A stretch of DNA of 64,000 nucleotides from a virus (Duplodnaviria > Caudoviricetes): positions 64,001-128,000 of the IMG/VR virus record IMGVR_UViG_3300020576_006124; one strand, 5' to 3'. How positions within the stretch are numbered: the stretch's first letter is position 1; each line of letters opens with the position of its first letter. The translations under genes were made by a program, and so were the position numbers. Below, piece by piece: positions 2,973 to 26,813 of this stretch. The notes beneath the pieces are model-generated. The model was not told the DNA's origin, did not search any database, and saw only the letters and a list, made by a program, of their open reading frames with translations.

Positions 2973-3175
2973 TGGAACTTATAGAAATACCAGAATTCCT
3001 TCTTCAGAAACTTAGAAAAAGAATACCAACTTTTGAGTCGAAAGATCTTTACTCAGTCCAAGAGATACAGACAATATTAGAGGAGCTAAAAGTACAGAAG
3101 GAGGTTCTTCATCAAAACAGAGTTAAAGTCCTTTCTGAGTTAGAGGAGTTAAAAACAAAGTACTTAAATGGTTGA
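2972..3175 (+). CDS. Small coiled-coil protein
   Basis: 67 aa with heptad-like L/E/K pattern; overlaps sbcD and the sbcC C-half. Confidence 0.55.
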   Translation: MELIEIPEFLLQKLRKRIPTFESKDLYSVQEIQTILEELKVQKEVLHQNRVKVLSELEELKTKYLNG

Positions 3176-3755
3176 AGAGTTAAAATTAGAGATTAATGAT
3201 CTGAGAGTAAGAAAGATTCTTTTAGAGAAAGACTTAGAGAGGATCAAGTCAGCCACCTCAGAACTTTACTCAACGAAGAAGTCCGCTGAGGAATTTATTT
3301 CACTTCATAGGGATTATGTTTTTGTTCTTACTAAAATAGTAGACTCTGTTGTAGAACAAATCAAGAGCTTCTCTGAAGCTCAGACTAGAAACCTAGATCT
3401 TCTATTCCCTGAAAAGAAGTATCATTGTGAGTTTGAATTTGTAAAAGACTCAGAAGGGTACTACAAAGAGATAAAGTATAAGGTATACTCTAACGGTAAG
3501 CTGATAAAAGACTTAGAGTCTCAGGAAGGTGCAAGCTTACTCAATATCAACTCCAGCCTATCTCTCATAGAGATAGTATCATCAGGGCAGATAGGCCCTA
3601 AAATACTTTTTCTGGATGAGTCTTTCGCTAACTTAGATTCCAGTAATTGGGCTAAGCTTGAGCCTTATTTAGAAGAAATTTGTAGAGAAAAAGATTTACA
3701 ATTATTCTTAATTAGCCATCATACACCACTTTCGGAAAACGTAATAACAATATGA
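3168..3755 (+). CDS. sbcC: SbcC/Rad50-like ABC ATPase, C-terminal half
   Basis: N-terminal coiled coil, degenerate signature SQEGAS, Walker B/D-loop LFLDESFANLD, H-loop ISHH. Confidence 0.85.
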   Translation: MVEELKLEINDLRVRKILLEKDLERIKSATSELYSTKKSAEEFISLHRDYVFVLTKIVDSVVEQIKSFSEAQTRNLDLLFPEKKYHCEFEFVKDSEGYYKEIKYKVYSNGKLIKDLESQEGASLLNINSSLSLIEIVSSGQIGPKILFLDESFANLDSSNWAKLEPYLEEICREKDLQLFLISHHTPLSENVITI

Positions 3756-4021
3756 ACGGATCTTTTTATACTTGTAAGAACTGTGGAAGTAATAAGGTTA
3801 ACTGTCACTTTCACATAGAAAAGGGAGGAAGTATTCTAAAGAATACGGGCTACAGACCTTTAATGTTCGAATCTAGGCTTAAGGCCTTGAACTACGCTAT
3901 ATTGAATAATATTTATCCCCCTATAGATATCTATGCTACTTCTTCCTGTGAGGTCTGCCAACACCCCAATCAAATCTACACACTCCATTCGGGATTTAGA
4001 CAGACCTTTAACAGTTATTAA
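3752..4021 (+). CDS. Zinc-ribbon protein
   Basis: CKNC and CEVC pairs. Confidence 0.55.
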   Translation: MNGSFYTCKNCGSNKVNCHFHIEKGGSILKNTGYRPLMFESRLKALNYAILNNIYPPIDIYATSSCEVCQHPNQIYTLHSGFRQTFNSY

Positions 4022-6124
4022 ATGAAAATCTTAAATGTAAATGATCTAAATAGTAAATTTTTGGGTAAGACTTTATTCTTAGAAACTCAGGAAGAACTAG
4101 ATAAGTTTTTCATAAAAGCTAAGAAAGAGTCTAAGCATACTTTTATTGATCTAGAAACTAACTCTCTTAACTGTAGGAGTGGGGATATACTACTCAACTC
4201 CTTATCTCTTAGAAAAGGTTGGGCTGTTGTTTTTAACCCAAATAAGTTCAAAAGCCTTAATTCTTTTAAAGATTATCTTCATAGACTGATGGTTTCCAAC
4301 CAGTCTATGTCATTTGATCTCCCCTGGCTATATCACCATTATGAGGTAGAACCTAAACTTACATGGTGTACAGAAATTGCAGCCCAGTATGGCTGGGGGG
4401 AATTACTCCCTTATAAATCCTTAGACTATCAGTGTCAGATGTTTCTAAATACTAAACTGGATAAAATGGTAAGAGACCAGTTTATTGGAAGGGATCCAGA
4501 AGAAGACCCTACAGATGATGAGATAGCTTATGCTGCTGCAGACACTATTGTTCTCCACGATCTAACTAGGATACAGTGGAATAGAATTAAAAACATAAAT
4601 CAACAAGATTTCTTCCTAAAATATGAAATCCCTTGCTTGGAGATTCTTACTAAAAGCTCTTATTTAGGGTATCCAATTAATGTTGATTATTTAAAGGACT
4701 CTTTATTAGAAGTAGAAGGCCAATTAGCTTCTATAAAAAATAAGTTCACTGAACTAAACAGGAGTCTGCAGCAGAAGTTAGAACCAGAACTAGATATTGA
4801 TTTCACTGTCAATCCCAGAGCTAGAGAGCAAATCATTAAACTTCTCGAACTTACTGGCATAAGAACTAATTCTATTAAAGAAGAAGTTATAGAAGACTTA
4901 TTTAATAAGAACCCTGATAACCCAGTTCTTTCTTTATATAAAGGGGAATATGCTAAGAGTAAAGCTTATTACGAAAAATACTTAAAGCCTTACTCAGCCT
5001 TTGCCTCCTCAGACTCAGAATCTAGAATACATCCATCTATTAGAACCTGTATTAATACAGGAAGAATGGCATCCAAGGATCCAAACATTATGGCTACTCC
5101 TGCTACTGGGAGATCATTAGTAAGGGCTGAGGAAGGATGCTACATAGTCTCTTGCGACTTCTCCTCTTATGAGTTTAGGGCTTGCGCTGCGGATTCAGAT
5201 GAAGAGGTTTTATTAGAAGCTTTTAAAACCAGAAAAGGTTTACTTCCGGAGATCACCTCTTTAGCCTCAAAATTTGTTGAAAGTAATGGAGTTCCTTTTA
5301 AGGATCCAGATAAGTTTACTAAAACTTACTTTGAAAAAAGACCAGATACAATAGTTCTTACAGAAAAAGAAAGATCCTTATTAGAGATTTTCTACTGCAA
5401 TGACATACATAGGCTTAATGCATCTCGCATGTGGAAGATATCTCCATTAGATGTAACATCGGCTCAGAGAACTATTGCTAAAATGTTAGGCTATGCTGTA
5501 CTTTATAGTATTACAGCAGAAAGTCTACAAATTCAGCTAAGAGGAGAAGGATTGAATTTTTCCATTGAGGAGGTAAAGGAATTTATGGGTCTTTTTACAG
5601 AGGCCTATCCTAAAATCGCTCTATCAATAAAAGATAATAATACAAAGATATCTCTTCCAAAATTCAAATCTTCTATTAGAGAAGAGTACTGGCAAGAAAC
5701 TTTACTCGGTAGAAAGAGATGGTTTTTATTCCCTAAAAATAAGAAATCAGATTACTACAGGGAAGTACTTTCTGCGAACCAGAGAGAGTCTTATAATCAT
5801 AAATTCCAAGGGAACAATGCTGATGCATTAAAGATAGCCTTACCAGAACTGGATACATTCTTCAGGAGTCTTAACAAGACAAGTGAATACGCAAGTCCAT
5901 ATTCTGAGCAGGAATATATAAGATTTGTTAGACAAAATAACTATCAAGTATCCAGGGTCTTTTGGCCTGTACACGATGAGATTAACTCAAACGTAGAAGA
6001 TAGACACTTAGATATAGTTATAAAGGAAAAACCTCTTATACTTGAAAGAGCAGGAGAAATAGCCACAGGGTATAAAGTACCAATGGAAATAGCTGTATCA
6101 TACGATAGGGTTTGGCCTAAGTAA
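4022..6124 (+). CDS. polA: Family A DNA polymerase with 3'-5' exonuclease, no 5' nuclease
   Basis: Exonuclease motifs DLET and YAAAD; TGRMAS.DPN; motif A DFSSYEFR; motif B RTIAKMLGYAVLY; QG..AD; motif C VHDEI. Confidence 0.95.
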   Translation: MKILNVNDLNSKFLGKTLFLETQEELDKFFIKAKKESKHTFIDLETNSLNCRSGDILLNSLSLRKGWAVVFNPNKFKSLNSFKDYLHRLMVSNQSMSFDLPWLYHHYEVEPKLTWCTEIAAQYGWGELLPYKSLDYQCQMFLNTKLDKMVRDQFIGRDPEEDPTDDEIAYAAADTIVLHDLTRIQWNRIKNINQQDFFLKYEIPCLEILTKSSYLGYPINVDYLKDSLLEVEGQLASIKNKFTELNRSLQQKLEPELDIDFTVNPRAREQIIKLLELTGIRTNSIKEEVIEDLFNKNPDNPVLSLYKGEYAKSKAYYEKYLKPYSAFASSDSESRIHPSIRTCINTGRMASKDPNIMATPATGRSLVRAEEGCYIVSCDFSSYEFRACAADSDEEVLLEAFKTRKGLLPEITSLASKFVESNGVPFKDPDKFTKTYFEKRPDTIVLTEKERSLLEIFYCNDIHRLNASRMWKISPLDVTSAQRTIAKMLGYAVLYSITAESLQIQLRGEGLNFSIEEVKEFMGLFTEAYPKIALSIKDNNTKISLPKFKSSIREEYWQETLLGRKRWFLFPKNKKSDYYREVLSANQRESYNHKFQGNNADALKIALPELDTFFRSLNKTSEYASPYSEQEYIRFVRQNNYQVSRVFWPVHDEINSNVEDRHLDIVIKEKPLILERAGEIATGYKVPMEIAVSYDRVWPK

Positions 6125-6128
6125 AAAA

Positions 6129-6329
6129 ATGAGTAAATTAGTAAGAAAAATAACTAATGGGTTTGTAGTACAAGTTTTTAATGAGGAGACTCGAAAAATA
6201 GTAGACCAAGAGTTTATATCTTGTGACGAGTACGAGATAACTACCTTAGATGGGGAAGTTTTAGATAGTGCTTCATATGAAGATCTTTATCATCCTTTCA
6301 ATCTAGAAGAGATACCACATAATGACTGA
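6129..6329 (+). CDS. Hypothetical acidic protein
   Basis: 66-aa ORF tightly packed in the operon. Confidence 0.6.
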   Translation: MSKLVRKITNGFVVQVFNEETRKIVDQEFISCDEYEITTLDGEVLDSASYEDLYHPFNLEEIPHND

Positions 6330-7479
6330 ACTTGAAAGAATTATACAAAAAGTAAATAAAGATAGGGACAAGCAGGGGAAAGATCCCCTAGTTATTCAAG
6401 CCAAAAAGCTTGAGCCTGTCTTCAAGATAGGAACTGGTATTGAACAGGTAGATGAAGCTTTAGGGGGAGGAATTTCAAGAGGTATCAGCACAGCTATTTG
6501 GGGTCCTCCTAATTGCGGTAAAACTTCCCTCTGTCTAACACTAGCCCGAGGAGTTATTAACTCCGGAGGTACAGTAGTATGGGTAGATACAGAAAATCTA
6601 AAACCAGAGGCTTTAGAAGCTTTCAGAGTAAATATTGACTCCCCTAACTTCTTTATTATAAGAAATAATGATTCTGCAGAGGAGATGATAGATACTGTCA
6701 ACACTATGCTATTCGATGAGGGCACTTCTAAGCATAGGGGGCTAGTTGACTTAATTATTATTGACTCTATTACTAATCTCCCCCCAGATGCTGAGAACAC
6801 TGCATTAGAAAAGACCGGACTTGCTGGGAGTGCCCAGTTAGCTAGATTACCTGCTATGTTAGCTAGATGGACAACTCAAGTAACTGGTAGAAACATGTTA
6901 GGTTATGGAGAAAAAGCTACAGCTCTTGTTTTAATTGCACAGCAAAGAGCTAATGTAGGAGACCAATACAATCCTACTCATATGTCGGGGGGACATGCCG
7001 TAAAGCACAACCCTAAAGTAATAGCTAAAGTAACTAGGGCCGGAAATACTTCTAAAAAAGATCCTAAAACCCAGCAGCTTATTCCCTATAGCCATGATGT
7101 TATTTTTGAAGTTACCAAGAATACCTCTGGAGGTATGCCTACCAAAATAAGGTATACTGTAATATACGGTGTAGGTGTGGATGATACTCCTTCTATTTAT
7201 AAGAAGGCCCTAGACAAAGGCTATATACAAAAACATCCGAAGTCAACTTTCTTCTACCTTACTTCATCTGGTGTATACAAGTTTGTTGGAAAACAGGCAG
7301 ATTCTATGGAGATACTTAATCATATTCCAGAGATTAAAGACTCTTTAAGAAATGATATTAAAGGCCCTAGAGTAACTGAGTTATTTAATCCAGATGAGTC
7401 AGAAGTAGAAATTAAGACAATTTCTTTTGAGGTTCAGGCTTCAACAGATTCTGAGGATCCTGATCAAATAGAAAACTAA
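6322..7479 (+). CDS. recA: RecA/UvsX-like recombinase
   Basis: TG...D.ALGGG, Walker A GPPNCGKT, VDTE, IIIDSI, QQR, SGGHAVKH. Confidence 0.93.
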   Translation: MTELERIIQKVNKDRDKQGKDPLVIQAKKLEPVFKIGTGIEQVDEALGGGISRGISTAIWGPPNCGKTSLCLTLARGVINSGGTVVWVDTENLKPEALEAFRVNIDSPNFFIIRNNDSAEEMIDTVNTMLFDEGTSKHRGLVDLIIIDSITNLPPDAENTALEKTGLAGSAQLARLPAMLARWTTQVTGRNMLGYGEKATALVLIAQQRANVGDQYNPTHMSGGHAVKHNPKVIAKVTRAGNTSKKDPKTQQLIPYSHDVIFEVTKNTSGGMPTKIRYTVIYGVGVDDTPSIYKKALDKGYIQKHPKSTFFYLTSSGVYKFVGKQADSMEILNHIPEIKDSLRNDIKGPRVTELFNPDESEVEIKTISFEVQASTDSEDPDQIEN

Positions 7480-7483
7480 AACT

Positions 7484-7924
7484 ATGAGTAACATTAATAC
7501 TATTGTCGTTTCCGGGTACGTTAACCGATCTTCGTCCCGAGCAATTAGTGACACACTACGAGTCCTAAACTTTACACTGTCCGTTCCTGGAGCTGGTCCT
7601 AAGGATCCAACTACGAACAAGAGAACTTATGGGTACTTTGACGTAACTCACTTCAACGCTCCTGATTGGATGGAGGCAGCGATCCTGAGCGCTCCAGACA
7701 CTAAAGGGTCTAAGGTCTATGTTCAAGGAACTCTTCAGATGGAAAGTTGGGTTGATAAGGATACTCAGAAGAATATGTACAAGACAGTCATTATTTCTAA
7801 TGATATTGACGTATCAGCTACAAAGGACTCAGTTCCGAGTAGTGAGGAGTCATCTTCTAGCAGCACTCAGCCCGTTCAGTCTTCTCCTTCTCTAACAGAT
7901 GAAGTTGCGGCCCTACTAGGCTAA
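7484..7924 (+). CDS. ssb: Single-stranded DNA-binding protein
   Basis: N...V.G, KGSKVYVQGTL..ESW.DK motif and a Ser-rich linker tail. Confidence 0.9.
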   Translation: MSNINTIVVSGYVNRSSSRAISDTLRVLNFTLSVPGAGPKDPTTNKRTYGYFDVTHFNAPDWMEAAILSAPDTKGSKVYVQGTLQMESWVDKDTQKNMYKTVIISNDIDVSATKDSVPSSEESSSSSTQPVQSSPSLTDEVAALLG

Positions 7925-21754: not shown

Positions 21755-22309
21755 ATGGATTTTGACACCACTTATATAAACTTCTTTGCTGGACCTGGAT
21801 CAGGAAAATCAGTTCTTTCTAATGAATTATATACAAGATTTGAAAAAGAAGGTCTGTCAGCCCAGTCTATAACAGAGTTTGCTAAGGATAGGGTCTGGGA
21901 AGAGTCCACAACAGTTTTAAAATGTCAACCTTACATAATCGGGGGTCAGATACTTAGACAATTCGTTTTAAGGGGCAAGGTGGAAGTTGTTTTCGTAGAC
22001 AGCCCTATTCCTCTAGGCATAGCCTACAAAGGCTTTGGTTGTAACGAAGATTGGGAAAAAGGGGTAATATATCAATTCAACTCCTTCAGGAACATTAACT
22101 TTCTTCTTTTAAGAAACCCAGATCTCATTACTTTTAAAACTAAAGGAAGAATTCATTCTTATGAAGAATCTCTGAAGAAAGATGAAGAGATAGTTAGTAT
22201 TCTTAAGAAACATAATATACCTTACTACGAAATTACCCCCCAGAAGGATGGGTCTCATTTAACAATTATTACTGACATAATCCTAGAGGAACTAAATAAA
22301 ACTGTCTAA
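21755..22309 (+). CDS. P-loop nucleotide kinase / NadR-type AAA protein
   Basis: INFFAGPGSGKS, EFAKD.VWE, Q.YI.G.Q, DSP, GR.H...ES. Confidence 0.8.
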   Translation: MDFDTTYINFFAGPGSGKSVLSNELYTRFEKEGLSAQSITEFAKDRVWEESTTVLKCQPYIIGGQILRQFVLRGKVEVVFVDSPIPLGIAYKGFGCNEDWEKGVIYQFNSFRNINFLLLRNPDLITFKTKGRIHSYEESLKKDEEIVSILKKHNIPYYEITPQKDGSHLTIITDIILEELNKTV

Positions 22310-22965
22310 GGAATAACTTTAATGGATTTAAGAATTTTCTCAGGAGTTTCAAATAAGTCGTTATTGACTACTGGTATTTTCCTTTTTATATTTTTGTATA
22401 AATCATCAAGTATTTCTTCAAACTCAAGTTGAAGGCCCAAAGAGTCTACTCTTAAGACCATATCATCCTCAACTTTTGGAATTGAATTTATCTTATTCCA
22501 CATTTGGAAAGAGGCACCACCACAGTAATCTAGATCTGATGTAAAGGGGAGATCCGATGTACAATACACCCCAATAATAGGTACACTATCTATTCCTTTC
22601 CAATGTTGCTCTTCACAGATTTGAGAATAAAACTTTAGTGACCTTAAATAATTAGTTGTTACGACAATGGATGTCTTTGACTTCTCTTGTATTTTCTTAT
22701 GGTATTGAAGAAGAAAGCTTCTGTACAAGCTGACCCATTTATCGGGGTTAGATAGTAAAATATCCGGTCTATTTTTTATCAGCCTAAAAAACTCAAAGTC
22801 TAAATCATAAATCGAAAAATTAGGTAATCCAAAAAAAGGAACCCTTAGCTTTTTAGCCAAATAGGTTCCTAATATTTTTTTGCCACAGTTTATTGAACCA
22901 TAAAGTTCAATAATGGTTCCTTTATTCCTATCTAATTTTTGATCTCTTTTTAAGCTGACAATCAT
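22306..22965 (-). CDS. Thymidylate/NMP kinase-like protein (degenerate P-loop)
   Basis: KGTIIELYGSINCGKKI...LAKKL, similar to the Tmk N-terminus. Confidence 0.5.
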   Translation of the reverse strand: MIVSLKRDQKLDRNKGTIIELYGSINCGKKILGTYLAKKLRVPFFGLPNFSIYDLDFEFFRLIKNRPDILLSNPDKWVSLYRSFLLQYHKKIQEKSKTSIVVTTNYLRSLKFYSQICEEQHWKGIDSVPIIGVYCTSDLPFTSDLDYCGGASFQMWNKINSIPKVEDDMVLRVDSLGLQLEFEEILDDLYKNIKRKIPVVNNDLFETPEKILKSIKVIP

Positions 22966-23300
22966 TGATAGTTGAGAGAGCTAAACTCTGCTGATTTGTC
23001 CTTAATGTAGTCCTCATAATTTAACTTCTTTAATAAGTCGTCAGTAGATAAAGGGGAAAGGACAAGACTATTATCTTCTAATAAAAGTACTGATCTTATT
23101 TTTTTATTTGCTTCGTATAAAGAGATAACCCTAAATCCAGTTTCTTGTCCATTTTTTACTCTCCTTACAAGGCCAGAAGTCTTCCTTTGGCTGTAATCTA
23201 GGATCAATCTTATACTATCCACAGAAACATGGTTACCAAAACCTATATTTATAAATAAAGGAATAAGCCCTTTTTCTGACTTAGTAACTTCCAAGCTCAT
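22962..23300 (-). CDS. remA: RemA/DUF370 (YlzA) family regulator homologue
   Basis: FINIGFGNHV....I..I and K.RSVLL.ED..LVLS.L....L..KL match the DUF370 consensus LINIGFGN.V...RI.AI and RT.AVI..D...VILS. Confidence 0.85.
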   Translation of the reverse strand: MSLEVTKSEKGLIPLFINIGFGNHVSVDSIRLILDYSQRKTSGLVRRVKNGQETGFRVISLYEANKKIRSVLLLEDNSLVLSPLSTDDLLKKLNYEDYIKDKSAEFSSLNYQ

Positions 23301-23691
23301 TTATAACCTCTAGCTCTCCTACTTCCTCTTGCTGTTTCATAGTCTCTAAGGCCTCTGCCAGTCTTAACTGCTTATCAATAGCCCAGCCTATTTCCTCTAC
23401 ATATTGACCTGTGCCCTGGTTATTAGGAGCTCTCTTCCTAAGATTTTCCATAAAGTTATGAGCTTCTTGTATATCCTTTCGATGATCAGACTCGAAAGGA
23501 TAACCTTTAATTGGAAAACCAGAGGCAGGCTTATTTAATGCTTCTACCACCCTCAATTCACAAGATTTACATTTAAGTAGATGAGGGTTATAGTTCTGAC
23601 ATTTACTTGAAACTATACAAAGATGACATCTAGAGCATTTCTTTCTTTGAGGGCTATCATAGTAAAACCCTGCACTCTGGCCGTTATACAC
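23281..23691 (-). CDS. Cys-rich zinc-binding protein
   Basis: CSRC, C, C and CKSC. Confidence 0.55.
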   Translation of the reverse strand: MYNGQSAGFYYDSPQRKKCSRCHLCIVSSKCQNYNPHLLKCKSCELRVVEALNKPASGFPIKGYPFESDHRKDIQEAHNFMENLRKRAPNNQGTGQYVEEIGWAIDKQLRLAEALETMKQQEEVGELEVINELGSY

Positions 23692-23694
23692 TAC

Positions 23695-24135
23695 TTAAAT
23701 TTCCTCGTCCTCTTTTTCGAAAGCATCTCTTACGACCTTGATATGCCTAGTTGAGACTTTCTTTAACTTCTCAAAGGTCTTATCAAAAAACTCAGAACTG
23801 AATTCGGCCTTAGCAGGCTCTAGACCAAGATTTATTCTGCTCCTCAGATCTGATAATACCATGCTCACAGTATTAATATAAATATGATTTAGACAATGTT
23901 CTAACAGGCTCTTCCCGTCTTCACTTTGAGTCAAGAAGAACACCTCAAAGATCTTTTTAAGTTCAGGTGTAATTTCATCCTCAATAAGACTAAGAATATT
24001 TTCGATATTCTTTTCTCCACCCTGTGACTCAAAGGACTCCACAGAAATCAGATCATTAGCCTTTCTACTAATTTCTTCTGAAGAAACCTCAGACAGAATG
24101 TCTTCTAACTTTTCATAAAAATCTCTACTTAACAT
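23695..24135 (-). CDS. Hypothetical acidic helical protein
   Basis: 146-aa ORF. Confidence 0.55.
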   Translation of the reverse strand: MLSRDFYEKLEDILSEVSSEEISRKANDLISVESFESQGGEKNIENILSLIEDEITPELKKIFEVFFLTQSEDGKSLLEHCLNHIYINTVSMVLSDLRSRINLGLEPAKAEFSSEFFDKTFEKLKKVSTRHIKVVRDAFEKEDEEI

Positions 24136-24722
24136 TTTTTTTTAACGTATCCTATAATCTCTGAGCTGTCAATAAAATACTCATTAACGTCTTCTAGACC
24201 TAAATGAGAATATTTAAGCTTAATAGACCTGAACGGAATGAACATAACAGTATCCCCCTCTTTTAAATCAAGAGAAATAAACTCATTTTGTTCATTCTTA
24301 AGGCCACTACCTACTCTCTTAATAGTTCCCCACCAGTACTCTGGTATCTCTGTCCGAGAATACCCAACCTTTTGAGTAAACTCAATAGGCTCAATAACTA
24401 CGTAATTACCATAAGGAACTATTTTACCATCTCTAACTACTGCGATGGCATCTAATACAGATGCAGCGTAAATTAGATCGTCCTCATCTGGTAAAGAAAA
24501 AGGTTTTACTCCATGATTAGCCATGTATACTATTTCTTCATTAAATATATCTGTGGTAATAAGGTTACCTGTAGAGCTATATATGCCCGGGCCGGAGCTT
24601 AGAACCTTATACCAATTAGTCTCTTTCTCAAAGGGGTTTTCTATGGGGGAAGACTGATCCTCCGCCTTTGAGACTTTATCTAAGATTAAGTAGTTTAGTC
24701 TTCCTTCTATTTTATAAGTCAT
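24129..24722 (-). CDS. groES: Co-chaperonin with two tandem GroES domains
   Basis: Domain 1: IEGRLNYLIL...KVLSSGPG....GNLITTDI....IVY...GVK...DAIAVV. Domain 2: IVPYGNYVVI...GTIKRVGSG......LDLKEGDTVMF...EIIGYV. Confidence 0.85.
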   Translation of the reverse strand: MTYKIEGRLNYLILDKVSKAEDQSSPIENPFEKETNWYKVLSSGPGIYSSTGNLITTDIFNEEIVYMANHGVKPFSLPDEDDLIYAASVLDAIAVVRDGKIVPYGNYVVIEPIEFTQKVGYSRTEIPEYWWGTIKRVGSGLKNEQNEFISLDLKEGDTVMFIPFRSIKLKYSHLGLEDVNEYFIDSSEIIGYVKKKC

Positions 24723-25005
24723 CTATAGTTTCGGGGCCTGATATTCCATTATCCTCTTCATTCTCTTCTATGATTACAAACTCTTTAGTATCTATGAATT
24801 CTGTAACCACAGATTGAATCTCCTGCCCTAAGTAGTCCGTCAGATTATCTCTAAGATCTTTAATAGAGAAAAGGGGTAAACAAGAGGTTAAAACGTTACT
24901 AATAAAGAATATACAATCGCTTGTAGGTGCAGACAAGCCTGGAACGAACTTGATATCCCCGTAAATCCCCTTAACGCTACCTGTGGAAACTTTAATTTCC
25001 CCCAT
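24712..25005 (-). CDS. Hypothetical protein
   Basis: 97-aa ORF. Confidence 0.5.
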   Translation of the reverse strand: MGEIKVSTGSVKGIYGDIKFVPGLSAPTSDCIFFISNVLTSCLPLFSIKDLRDNLTDYLGQEIQSVVTEFIDTKEFVIIEENEEDNGISGPETIDDL

Positions 25006-25486
25006 TATCCAAAGTCTCCTCCTTCTTTCTTCCGGGCTTTTTTACTTTAATAGGAGTAGTATCTACTTCTCCCTTAGAAGCAGGGTTATCCTCCGTAGAT
25101 TTTACCCCTTCTTCTACCTTTTCTTTCACAGTCTTTGGTTTAGAAATAAAGTTGAAGATTAAAACCTTCTTTTTATCCTTAGCAGGAACTGACAAGTACC
25201 ATGGAACTACTGCACCTTTTAAAAAAGTTAATTGATTCTCAAAGACCTGGACAGCACCCGGGTCACCCTTATGATAAATGGCCATTCTTTCAAGCTCTCC
25301 TTGGTCTGGGAGCAGAAAGGTAATATTTTCCACCTTCTCATCATAGGTTCCACTAGAGTCTAAAAGAACCAACTCTAATCTCCTCACATGCCCTTGATCC
25401 TCCCCAATCCTCAATTCTGTTTTGGATTGTAGGGGAAAAGAAGCTAGAAGCCTAGCTATTTCTAGTTTTATTCTGGATGCATCCAT
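24992..25486 (-). CDS. Hypothetical protein
   Basis: 164-aa ORF with a charged tail. Confidence 0.55.
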   Translation of the reverse strand: MDASRIKLEIARLLASFPLQSKTELRIGEDQGHVRRLELVLLDSSGTYDEKVENITFLLPDQGELERMAIYHKGDPGAVQVFENQLTFLKGAVVPWYLSVPAKDKKKVLIFNFISKPKTVKEKVEEGVKSTEDNPASKGEVDTTPIKVKKPGRKKEETLDNGGN

Positions 25487-25488
25487 AC

Positions 25489-26547
25489 TTATGTTAGATT
25501 ATACTCTACTCCCTTTAAAATTGGGGTAAAATAACTACTATTAGAATTAAAAATGATATTAATTCTATTTGAGGAAAGATATCCAAGTAATTCATTAGTA
25601 TTAGCTCCCTCGAAAGAGAAAACCTCTGTAAGAGTACCGGCTGAAGGATGCTTTACTACAACTGTTCCGGTAGTATCATAGTTATTATTTTTTATGTCGA
25701 AGGATCTAAAGCCTATTTTAGTTAATGTCTTGGTGTCTATGCAAACTAAAACATCTGAAACATCCTTAGTTCTTCCATCAAAAAGAAGTCTGAAACTACT
25801 TATACTTGATGCAGTTCCTCCAGAGTATAGAGGTAGATAGCTAAAGTCGTGTGTTTCCCAGTTGCCACCAAAACTTCTTATCTTTACAACTTTTAGATCA
25901 GAGCAGAATGCTGGCCATACATCTAATGTAAAACAATTAGTTACCAGGTTAGTTAATCTAGTGTTCTGCCTAAACCACAACCACATATAATGATCAGTTA
26001 AATCTGCATCTAAAGAGATTGGTCGAATTGGGCTAAAGATGTCGTTTAAATCCAATATCTCAGTAAAAGAAGAGGATGAAGGTTGAGTGGTGCTGTTAGT
26101 TTTTGCGTACTTTACTTCTATCCCTTCATGTACAATTCTGTGGTTAGAATCGTTTACGATATAAACGTTACTTGTGGAGCTGTTTATTGGAAGGGTTATT
26201 TGTCCATATTGAGAGTCTAAGCTACCTGTAGGGGAACTATGTACAAAGGAACTGCTATAAAAATCTGCGTATCTAGTAGTTCCAGCTATAGTACCTACAG
26301 CCGTAGTCAAAGAAGAAATAAGGCTTGTTAACGCGGCATTCTCTGTAGAGGAAAAGGTATTAGTTAGGTCTAGTGCATCTCTAAGTCTAGAAGATGAAAA
26401 ATACAGCTTAAATAGATCATTATTCAGCGCAGTTAAGAGTTTATTAAAGTCTTCGCTGGAGCTAATACCCCCTGCTTTAGGCTTTTTACTTATAAGTGAT
26501 TCTAATTGTTTTAAAACAATTTCTTTTGGGAATCCATAATTACTCAT
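25489..26547 (-). CDS. Putative virion baseplate/tail structural protein
   Basis: N-terminal helical SSEDFN.L...L.NDL..LY followed by a S/T-rich beta region; inside the structural operon. Confidence 0.55.
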   Translation of the reverse strand: MSNYGFPKEIVLKQLESLISKKPKAGGISSSEDFNKLLTALNNDLFKLYFSSSRLRDALDLTNTFSSTENAALTSLISSLTTAVGTIAGTTRYADFYSSSFVHSSPTGSLDSQYGQITLPINSSTSNVYIVNDSNHRIVHEGIEVKYAKTNSTTQPSSSSFTEILDLNDIFSPIRPISLDADLTDHYMWLWFRQNTRLTNLVTNCFTLDVWPAFCSDLKVVKIRSFGGNWETHDFSYLPLYSGGTASSISSFRLLFDGRTKDVSDVLVCIDTKTLTKIGFRSFDIKNNNYDTTGTVVVKHPSAGTLTEVFSFEGANTNELLGYLSSNRINIIFNSNSSYFTPILKGVEYNLT

Positions 26548-26552
26548 TTTTT

Positions 26553-26813
26553 TTATCTATTAAAGAATTCTATTTGAACCAGGGCTGAATTAATTGACGA
26601 TCTAATGGAAGATGAGAAAGCTGTATTCTCTGGGCTATAATCAAAAAATTCATTGAGGTCGCTGTCTACTAAGTAAAGAACCCTAGTCATCTCCTGAATC
26701 CCTAATTGTAACTTCCAAACATCTCTTGTACCATATTTAGAAAAAGGAAGAGTAGTATTAAAATACTCAGTGGTATTAAACCTTGTATGTTTAGAAAAGT
26801 AATTATCTTCCAT
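26553..26813 (-). CDS. Small putative structural protein
   Basis: 86-aa ORF in the structural operon. Confidence 0.45.
   Translation of the reverse strand: MEDNYFSKHTRFNTTEYFNTTLPFSKYGTRDVWKLQLGIQEMTRVLYLVDSDLNEFFDYSPENTAFSSSIRSSINSALVQIEFFNR

Follow-up and report, generated by a model that had tools for sequence, protein, structure and literature searches.

The window described here is a stretch of 64,000 nucleotides (bases 64001-128000) of IMGVR_UViG_3300020576_006124, a linear viral record of 197,239 bp in IMG/VR with a completeness of 85% according to CheckV. Within it, the minus strand carries two overlapping genes (Table 1), one for a protein of 112 amino acids (aa) related to the bacterial regulator RemA, the other for a 219-aa protein with a P-loop. 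Both open reading frames (ORFs) had been picked out in an earlier reading of the letters alone (the sequence-only reading), and both are present as it described them. Taken together, their sequences add to the known RemA family a phage member that is new and diverged to an unusual degree, with an orphan P-loop partner, which is a result at the level of annotation. The gene content of the phage includes a family-A DNA polymerase (DNA polymerase A), intein-bearing subunits of ribonucleotide reductase (RNR), a single tRNA and, on the minus strand, an extended block of large genes of structural type that lack annotation. The G+C content is 0.32-0.33 across the pair (22306-23300) and 0.385 across the entire phage genome, so that the pair is the richer in AT.

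Table 1. Features at the locus, numbered from the first nucleotide of the window, and residues of the RemA-like protein with their counterparts in an alignment with Geobacillus RemA (7bm2).
Feature	Position	Strand	Remarks
RemA-like gene, 112 aa	22962..23300	minus	core residues 15-97; 14-aa N-terminal and ~15-aa C-terminal extensions
Orphan P-loop gene, 219 aa	22306..22965	minus	Walker-A-like loop G[ST]IN[CS]GKK at residues 23-30
Shine-Dalgarno-like GAGG	23307..23310	minus	6 nt 5' of the RemA-like ATG; minus strand reads GGAGAGCTAGAGGTTATAAATG
ATGA stop/start overlap	22962..22965	minus	TGA of the RemA-like ORF and ATG of the P-loop ORF share the tetranucleotide
Packed run of eight same-strand genes	22306..26547	minus	gaps or overlaps of at most 20 nt; RemA-like/P-loop pair at its end
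Zinc-ribbon-like protein, 136 aa	23281-23691	minus	CxxC...CxxC; directly upstream, in the packed run
Acidic protein, 146 aa	23695-24135	minus	upstream, in the packed run
AAA_28/thymidylate-kinase-PHROG gene	21755..22309	plus	canonical P-loop GPGSGKS; convergent with the 219-aa gene
K66, K67, R69 of the RemA-like protein	R50, R51, R53 of RemA		DNA binding and in-vivo activity (PMC8481266)
E75 of the RemA-like protein	D59 of RemA		D59 contacts R18 of the adjacent subunit in the ring
R46 of the RemA-like protein	R32 of RemA		helix alpha-1, proposed octamer-octamer interface
S29 of the RemA-like protein	R18 of RemA		ring geometry determinant; the phage arginine lies two residues later
G43 of the RemA-like protein	P29 of RemA		start of helix alpha-1

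The 112-aa protein is a true phage-encoded member of the PF04025/RemA family. It matches the Pfam RemA-like model PF04025 (DUF370) over its full length (model positions 1-73 of 73) at 40.7 bits and E 2.7e-10, the gathering cut-off of the model being 26 bits, and a repeat from the genome gave the same match at 40.9 bits. This bears out the sequence-only reading, which had proposed a DUF370/RemA homologue from the motifs INIGFGN.V and RSVLL.ED..LVLS; the hit lies far beyond chance, and no unrelated structure emerged. Compared by hhalign with a profile of 69 RemA sequences taken from bacterial genome loci, the protein aligns at a probability of 96.4% (E 1.4e-9) over 77 columns with 29% identity, and Geobacillus RemA (PDB 7bm2) aligns over residues 15-97 at E 0.0034. 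The family is recognised by an N-terminal (I/L)N(I/V)GFGN and a C-terminal hydrophobic strand ending in V(L/I)LS. The phage protein has FINIGFGNHV and SLVLS in these places, both of which align with canonical RemA, and its ORF contains RSVLLLEDNSLVLS in addition to the former. It thus shares INIGFGN and a full-length domain with RemA (YlzA) of Bacillus subtilis and Geobacillus thermodenitrificans (7BM2, 7BME, 7P1W; PMC8481266). All 30 of its feature neighbours in the ESM Atlas are PF04025 clusters. The Atlas model of the protein, with a predicted local distance difference test (pLDDT) value of 0.67, superimposes over residues 13-107 on a RemA-like cluster with template modelling (TM) scores of 0.66/0.80, both structures being predictions, and the RemA wedge fold is probably adopted. 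The earlier reader knew of no characterised phage RemA, and the literature searched likewise holds no paper on one.

Within this family the phage protein stands far out. Judged by the sequences compared, it is a fast-evolving and highly diverged copy, the most diverged among those found. When 1.84 billion representative proteins were searched exhaustively with phmmer, only eight other hits emerged (E 6e-6 to 6e-4), the best identity to any representative being 39% (E 6e-6), and a word-indexed protein search found nothing except the protein itself. Our own hidden Markov model (HMM) of bacterial RemA gives it 28 bits, as against 64-128 bits for 28 other viral copies. It fails the NCBIfam equivalog models for RemA (NF046064, 25.7 bits with a cut-off of 140) and RemB (NF046065, 19.4 bits with a cut-off of 40), as well as PRK04323 (33.3 bits with a cut-off of 87). 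Sequences of canonical RemA from Clostridia and other phyla are 63-99% identical. The phage protein differs from RemA in its low identity (~29%), in these failed cut-offs, in the loss of R18 and P29, and in having a 14-aa N-terminal and a 15-aa C-terminal extension and no acidic C-terminal tail. Its branch in a tree is 6.1 substitutions per site long and groups weakly with other long branches; this placement is unreliable and gives no hint of a donor or a host.

R50, R51 and R53 of RemA are needed for DNA binding, and its function needs an exact ring geometry, R18W turning the octamer into an inactive heptamer (PMC8481266). At the positions of the three arginines the phage protein has a corresponding K-K-x-R, in which the substitutions are conservative and are not identities. 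RemA is also matched by acidity at the D59 position, by arginine at the R32 position and by the charge of the core: over 72 residues the net charge is +1.9, which equals the bacterial median. Bacterial RemA at full length is acidic (median isoelectric point, pI, 5.3) owing to its C-terminal acidic tail, while viral RemA-like proteins lack the tail and have a median pI of 9.0; the present protein is likewise tail-less. The 72-aa cores of the bacterial and viral groups are equally positive. Because the basic residues are conserved and the core charge equals the bacterial median, the DNA-binding surface looks to have been retained, as far as aligned residues can indicate. Relatives of the fold, namely SwrD, LytTR and ComK, resemble RemA in being small beta-rich subunits assembled into rings or dimers. 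SwrD forms hexamers that share the RemA fold without its DNA-binding elements (PMC13740483); the insertion bearing the DNA-binding arginines is missing from SwrD, whereas the phage protein keeps this segment, with basic residues in it.

The overlap of the two genes, also noticed in the sequence-only reading, is confirmed at 22962-22965. The GAGG that precedes the RemA-like gene sits within the 3' end of the zinc-ribbon ORF, and on direct inspection of the sequence no Shine-Dalgarno motif is visible 5' of the 219-aa P-loop gene. Given this lack of a visible motif and the ATGA overlap, termination-reinitiation is the likely mechanism by which translation of the P-loop gene is coupled to that of the RemA-like gene.

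The 219-aa ORF carries the loop GSINCGKK, with Lys in place of Ser/Thr after GK. Three metagenomic homologues, at 41-58% identity, make up with it a family of four members known from metagenomes only; the 58%-identical one (P0011) is on a 14-kb contig. Across the four, 71 positions are invariant, including the loop G-[ST]-I-N-[CS]-G-K-K, a pattern that marks a real and constrained gene. By sequence the protein has no match in Pfam, PHROGs, NCBIfam or PDB, and Pfam scans of all four members at E<=10 give nothing. A PDB search with the family profile gave as its only hit an integrase domain at E 0.03, which was dismissed as spurious. AlphaFold2 (AF2) models reach a pLDDT of 34 from the single sequence and 43 from the four-sequence alignment. 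The latter, of low confidence, flanks the loop with a strand (17-22) and a helix (28-39), that is, a strand-loop-helix at residues 17-39. The predicted protein shares with P-loop small-molecule and polynucleotide kinases this N-terminal strand, a G-x4-G-K loop and helix, and a core of alternating strands and helices. In Foldseek the pLDDT-43 model finds APS kinase first (E 3e-3, TM ~0.3), and nearly every top row is a P-loop small-molecule kinase or NTPase. VIA-align ranks the kinase domain of T4 polynucleotide kinase (PNK) best at Z 5.7, thymidylate kinases aligning over the whole 219-aa length at Z 4.0-4.8 only, and the ESM Atlas model has TM scores of 0.52-0.58 to AAA_33/SKI/gluconokinase clusters. 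The Foldseek, VIA-align and Atlas values all fall short of what a reliable fold match requires; a P-loop kinase/ATPase fold is nevertheless probable for the 219-aa protein on these models.

The sequence-only reading had labelled this gene NMP-kinase-like (NMP, nucleoside monophosphate). The label draws some support from the weak structural leads to P-loop kinases and ATPases, and goes too far in that no relationship to Gmk, Tmk or dNK is detectable. HMMs for Guanylate_kin (PF00625), Thymidylate_kin (PF02223) and dNK (PF01712) find nothing in the genome at E<=10, nor does our own Gmk HMM. When the four-member family is aligned by hhalign with 46 Gmk sequences, only 28 P-loop columns are matched (probability 0.9%), and with three Tmk sequences again only the P-loop aligns. 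The segments TNY and PIIGVYCTSDLP are Tmk-like by eye and have no statistical support. Beyond R41, none of the typical conserved arginines of NMP kinases is visible in the family alignment, and no DR(Y/F) or LID arginines are recognisable in the 219-aa protein. Global hhalign and shuffled pairwise tests against Gmk, Tmk and AAA_28 have no power here, as known remote pairs also score z ~1 in them. The region after the P-loop helix is predicted to be helical, at low confidence (pLDDT 43). The GMP-binding domain of Gmk, for comparison, is beta-rich. The partner thus differs from thymidylate, APS, shikimate/AAA_33 and T4 PNK kinases in having no sequence-profile match and in its Lys for Ser/Thr. 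Likeness to NMP kinases is weakly supported by the models, identity as one is not shown by them, and "P-loop, probably kinase-like" is the upper limit of what they suggest. The description of the P-loop as degenerate may overstate the case: in Faecalibacterium, proteins at the gmk position read GKD, so that Lys after GK need not mean inactivity. The Walker A variant of these Faecalibacterium ORFs, which follow remA, is SGAAGTGKDS, with Asp for Ser/Thr after GK.

The layout of the pair is that of a familiar bacterial arrangement. Among the 69 bacterial loci, a sample skewed toward Clostridia, 63 show an ORF of 120 aa or more whose start is no more than 60 nt from the remA stop, and 46 of these 63 downstream ORFs contain GxSGxGK. 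The statement in the sequence-only reading that bacterial remA usually precedes gmk therefore held in this sample (63/69). The remA gene and the downstream ORF overlap by 4 nt in 12 loci and by 8 nt in 17. The phage pair mirrors this layout, with a Walker-A gene of ~200 aa next to the RemA-like gene, a 4-nt overlap, and a partner length of 219 aa (170-213 aa in bacteria). It is set apart by its position in a ~200-kb phage, where the housekeeping synteny yicC-remA-gmk is missing: the phage genome has no YicC, no Guanylate_kin match and no recognisable gmk. The pair may stem from a remA-gmk cassette that was captured and then diverged extremely, since layout, partner length and the uniqueness of the pairing would all fit; a common origin of the phage pair and bacterial remA-gmk is possible, though on balance doubtful.

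RemA-like genes are not confined to this phage. The sequence-only reading had implied that a phage RemA would be unique, which does not hold, as uncultured phages carry such genes repeatedly: when IMG/VR was scanned by degenerate pattern with the canonical RemA alignment, 28 loci in phage contexts came up. Like the present copy, these are phage-borne PF04025 proteins that lie outside the yicC-remA-gmk locus, are basic and lack the acidic tail. They differ in being much closer to bacterial RemA (64-128 bits as against 28) and in their neighbours, none of which resembles genes of the present phage. Genes scanned within ~4 kb of them include large terminase, primase and DNA methyltransferase. Gmk is found within 4 kb of none of the 28 loci, and none has a Walker-A ORF downstream, which means that pairing with a P-loop gene is not a general phage feature. 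PHROGs has no RemA-like family. One of the IMG/VR records, IMGVR_UViG_3300025530_000001 (197.4 kb), encodes at 3111-7827 a 111-aa RemA-like protein between a Cas4-like exonuclease and a DnaE-type DNA polymerase, and has no other detectable gene in common with the present locus. Eight INPHARED entries named "Bacteriophage sp." also match canonical RemA; the two inspected look, at these loci, like bacterial chromosome fragments and were dropped as evidence for phages. In MT835528.1 and MT835556.1 ("UNVERIFIED: Bacteriophage sp.", from human faeces) the genes run ligA, AIR-synthase-related, yicC, remA, gmk, coaBC, which is bacterial housekeeping order. Two metagenomic proteins that are among the nearest relatives of the phage protein, P0003 (191 aa) and P0006 (225 aa), are tandem fusions of two RemA-like domains, and one of these fusions has a long acidic tail; this architecture was not found described.

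Few bacterial regulators are known to wrap DNA around a ring as RemA does, and work on RemA has, to our knowledge, treated it solely as a housekeeping activator of biofilm. The reading we favour, at about even confidence, takes the DNA of the phage itself, and not the biofilm genes of a host, as the target of the RemA-like/P-loop pair, which would wrap this DNA in an architectural role or to activate transcription. Action on phage DNA is suggested by the lack of close resemblance to any cellular RemA and by the position of other phage RemA-like genes beside genes for DNA handling. Under such a scheme the RemA-like protein would assemble into rings, as the alignment and the predicted-structure neighbours suggest, and the ring would bind DNA on its outer face through K66-K67-x-R69, the counterpart of R50-R51-x-R53. 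Termination-reinitiation at the ATGA would supply it in fixed proportion to the 219-aa protein, probably an accessory enzyme or a partner that binds nucleotides. A captured bacterial remA-gmk cassette may be the source of the gene order, though this is not demonstrable. A more elaborate version, in which a nucleoside triphosphate-dependent partner loads, remodels or modifies a DNA-wrapping ring that organises the genome or activates promoters, is distinctly unlikely; if true, such a two-component module would be a viral chromatin-like or activator system built from the fold of a bacterial biofilm regulator. Several observations weigh against the favoured reading. Many positions invariant in cellular RemA are changed, and the ring and helix determinants R18 and P29 are replaced. 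SwrD shows that the fold can form rings without binding DNA. The exhaustive search found no close relative of the RemA-like protein, yet a 58%-identical homologue of its partner exists, which hints that the pairing may not be conserved in relatives or that, of the two genes, the RemA-like one evolves much the faster. Finally, the putative late-promoter motif CTCTATT is not enriched in the window.

The same evidence bears on what else the pair might do. RemA itself activates host operons (PMC8481266), so the phage protein might bind host promoters (of matrix, osmoprotection or other RemA targets) and reprogramme the infected cell. The retained basic K-K-x-R patch would suit this, as would the AT-richness of the pair (0.32-0.33 against 0.385), accessory "moron" genes often being AT-rich. 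Such a regulator would, however, have to be reconciled with extreme divergence and failure at both the RemA and RemB cut-offs, and with the DNA-handling neighbours of the gene in other phages; RemA also binds poorly conserved repetitive DNA, from which target specificity is not inferable. A host-directed regulator is accordingly an unlikely explanation, and the reprogramming of host matrix or biofilm genes proposed in the sequence-only reading finds no evidence here in its support. The other host-directed proposal of that reading, that phage subunits join host RemA and poison its rings, takes its appeal from the R18W mutant, whose heptamers are inactive, and from the serine that the phage protein has at the R18 position. 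Mixed rings need compatible beta2-beta3 interfaces, though, and with at most 39% identity to known RemA-like proteins among the 1.84e9 searched, and with many invariant positions altered, the phage protein diverges from every sampled cellular RemA, which argues against co-assembly; nor would a pure decoy need the conserved basic DNA-binding residues. A dominant-negative role is very improbable.

If instead the P-loop protein is what matters, the locus could be a relic of a captured remA-gmk cassette, in which a kinase serves phage DNA synthesis and the RemA-like gene travels along. Order, tight overlap and partner length are as at bacterial remA-gmk loci, no other viral RemA-like locus of the 28 has a downstream Walker-A ORF, the phage invests heavily in nucleotide metabolism (RNR), and the structural leads are mostly to small-molecule kinases. 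Set against these are the silence of the Gmk, Tmk and dNK HMMs at E<=10, an hhalign match to Gmk limited to P-loop columns, a post-P-loop region predicted as helical (at low confidence) where Gmk has its beta-rich GMP-binding domain, and the lack of visible typical NMP-kinase arginines beyond R41. The RemA-like ORF is moreover intact, with the family core motifs, and so is not a decaying passenger. We regard this relic as improbable, to about the same degree as a regulator of host promoters. The RemA-like protein might also form a ring that does not bind DNA, either a SwrD-like scaffold or a binder of RNA, and cooperate with its P-loop partner in, for example, assembly or chaperoning. SwrD hexamers show that the fold can lack DNA-binding elements, and the packed run includes a GroES-like gene and lies downstream of structural genes. 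Since the segment with the DNA-binding arginines, which is missing in SwrD, is present here with conserved basic residues, and the core charge equals that of DNA-binding RemA, a scaffold of this kind seems decidedly improbable. Action on phage DNA remains the preferred reading. Diverged RemA copies in unrelated uncultured phages suggest a reusable DNA-handling module for mobile elements. The present copy, alone among those found in being coupled to a P-loop protein, could reveal how much drift the ring and its surface for binding DNA allow.

The eight genes of the packed run encode, in order, proteins of 352 aa, 164 aa and 97 aa, a double GroES-like protein, the acidic 146-aa and the zinc-ribbon 136-aa proteins, and finally the RemA-like and P-loop proteins. 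Neither the zinc-ribbon nor the acidic protein has a significant match in Pfam or PHROGs, with marginal ones only at E>=0.03. The sole sizeable gap upstream of the run is at 26548-26802. The motif CTCTATT/CTCTATW occurs at chance frequency in the window and is absent from this gap, and a scan for sigma-70-type promoters gives background level. Terminator-like sites number 10, compared with 5.5 +/- 2.3 in shuffled sequence, which is at most a modest excess. No tandem repeats suggesting a RemA-type binding array are present. Relatives of the locus were sought more widely, all with negative results: among INPHARED phages by blastn and tblastn with the phage locus, in IMG/VR by related-locus searches with the RemA-like protein, P0011, a SpoIIIAA-like ATPase, the double GroES, alignment A3 and P0002, and in two metagenome scans.

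On its other side the pair meets a second P-loop gene, which matches Pfam AAA_28 at 35.6 bits and phrog_2107 at E 3e-6. When aligned by hhalign with the 219-aa family, only the P-loop of this neighbour is matched, and no kinship is detectable. The stop codons of the two convergent genes overlap at 22306-22309, and no terminator-like hairpin lies between their 3' ends. Transcripts from either side of this point would run antisense into the opposite gene. A paralogue of the AAA_28 gene, 41% identical to it, lies ~86 kb off in this phage, at genome positions 172338-172862.

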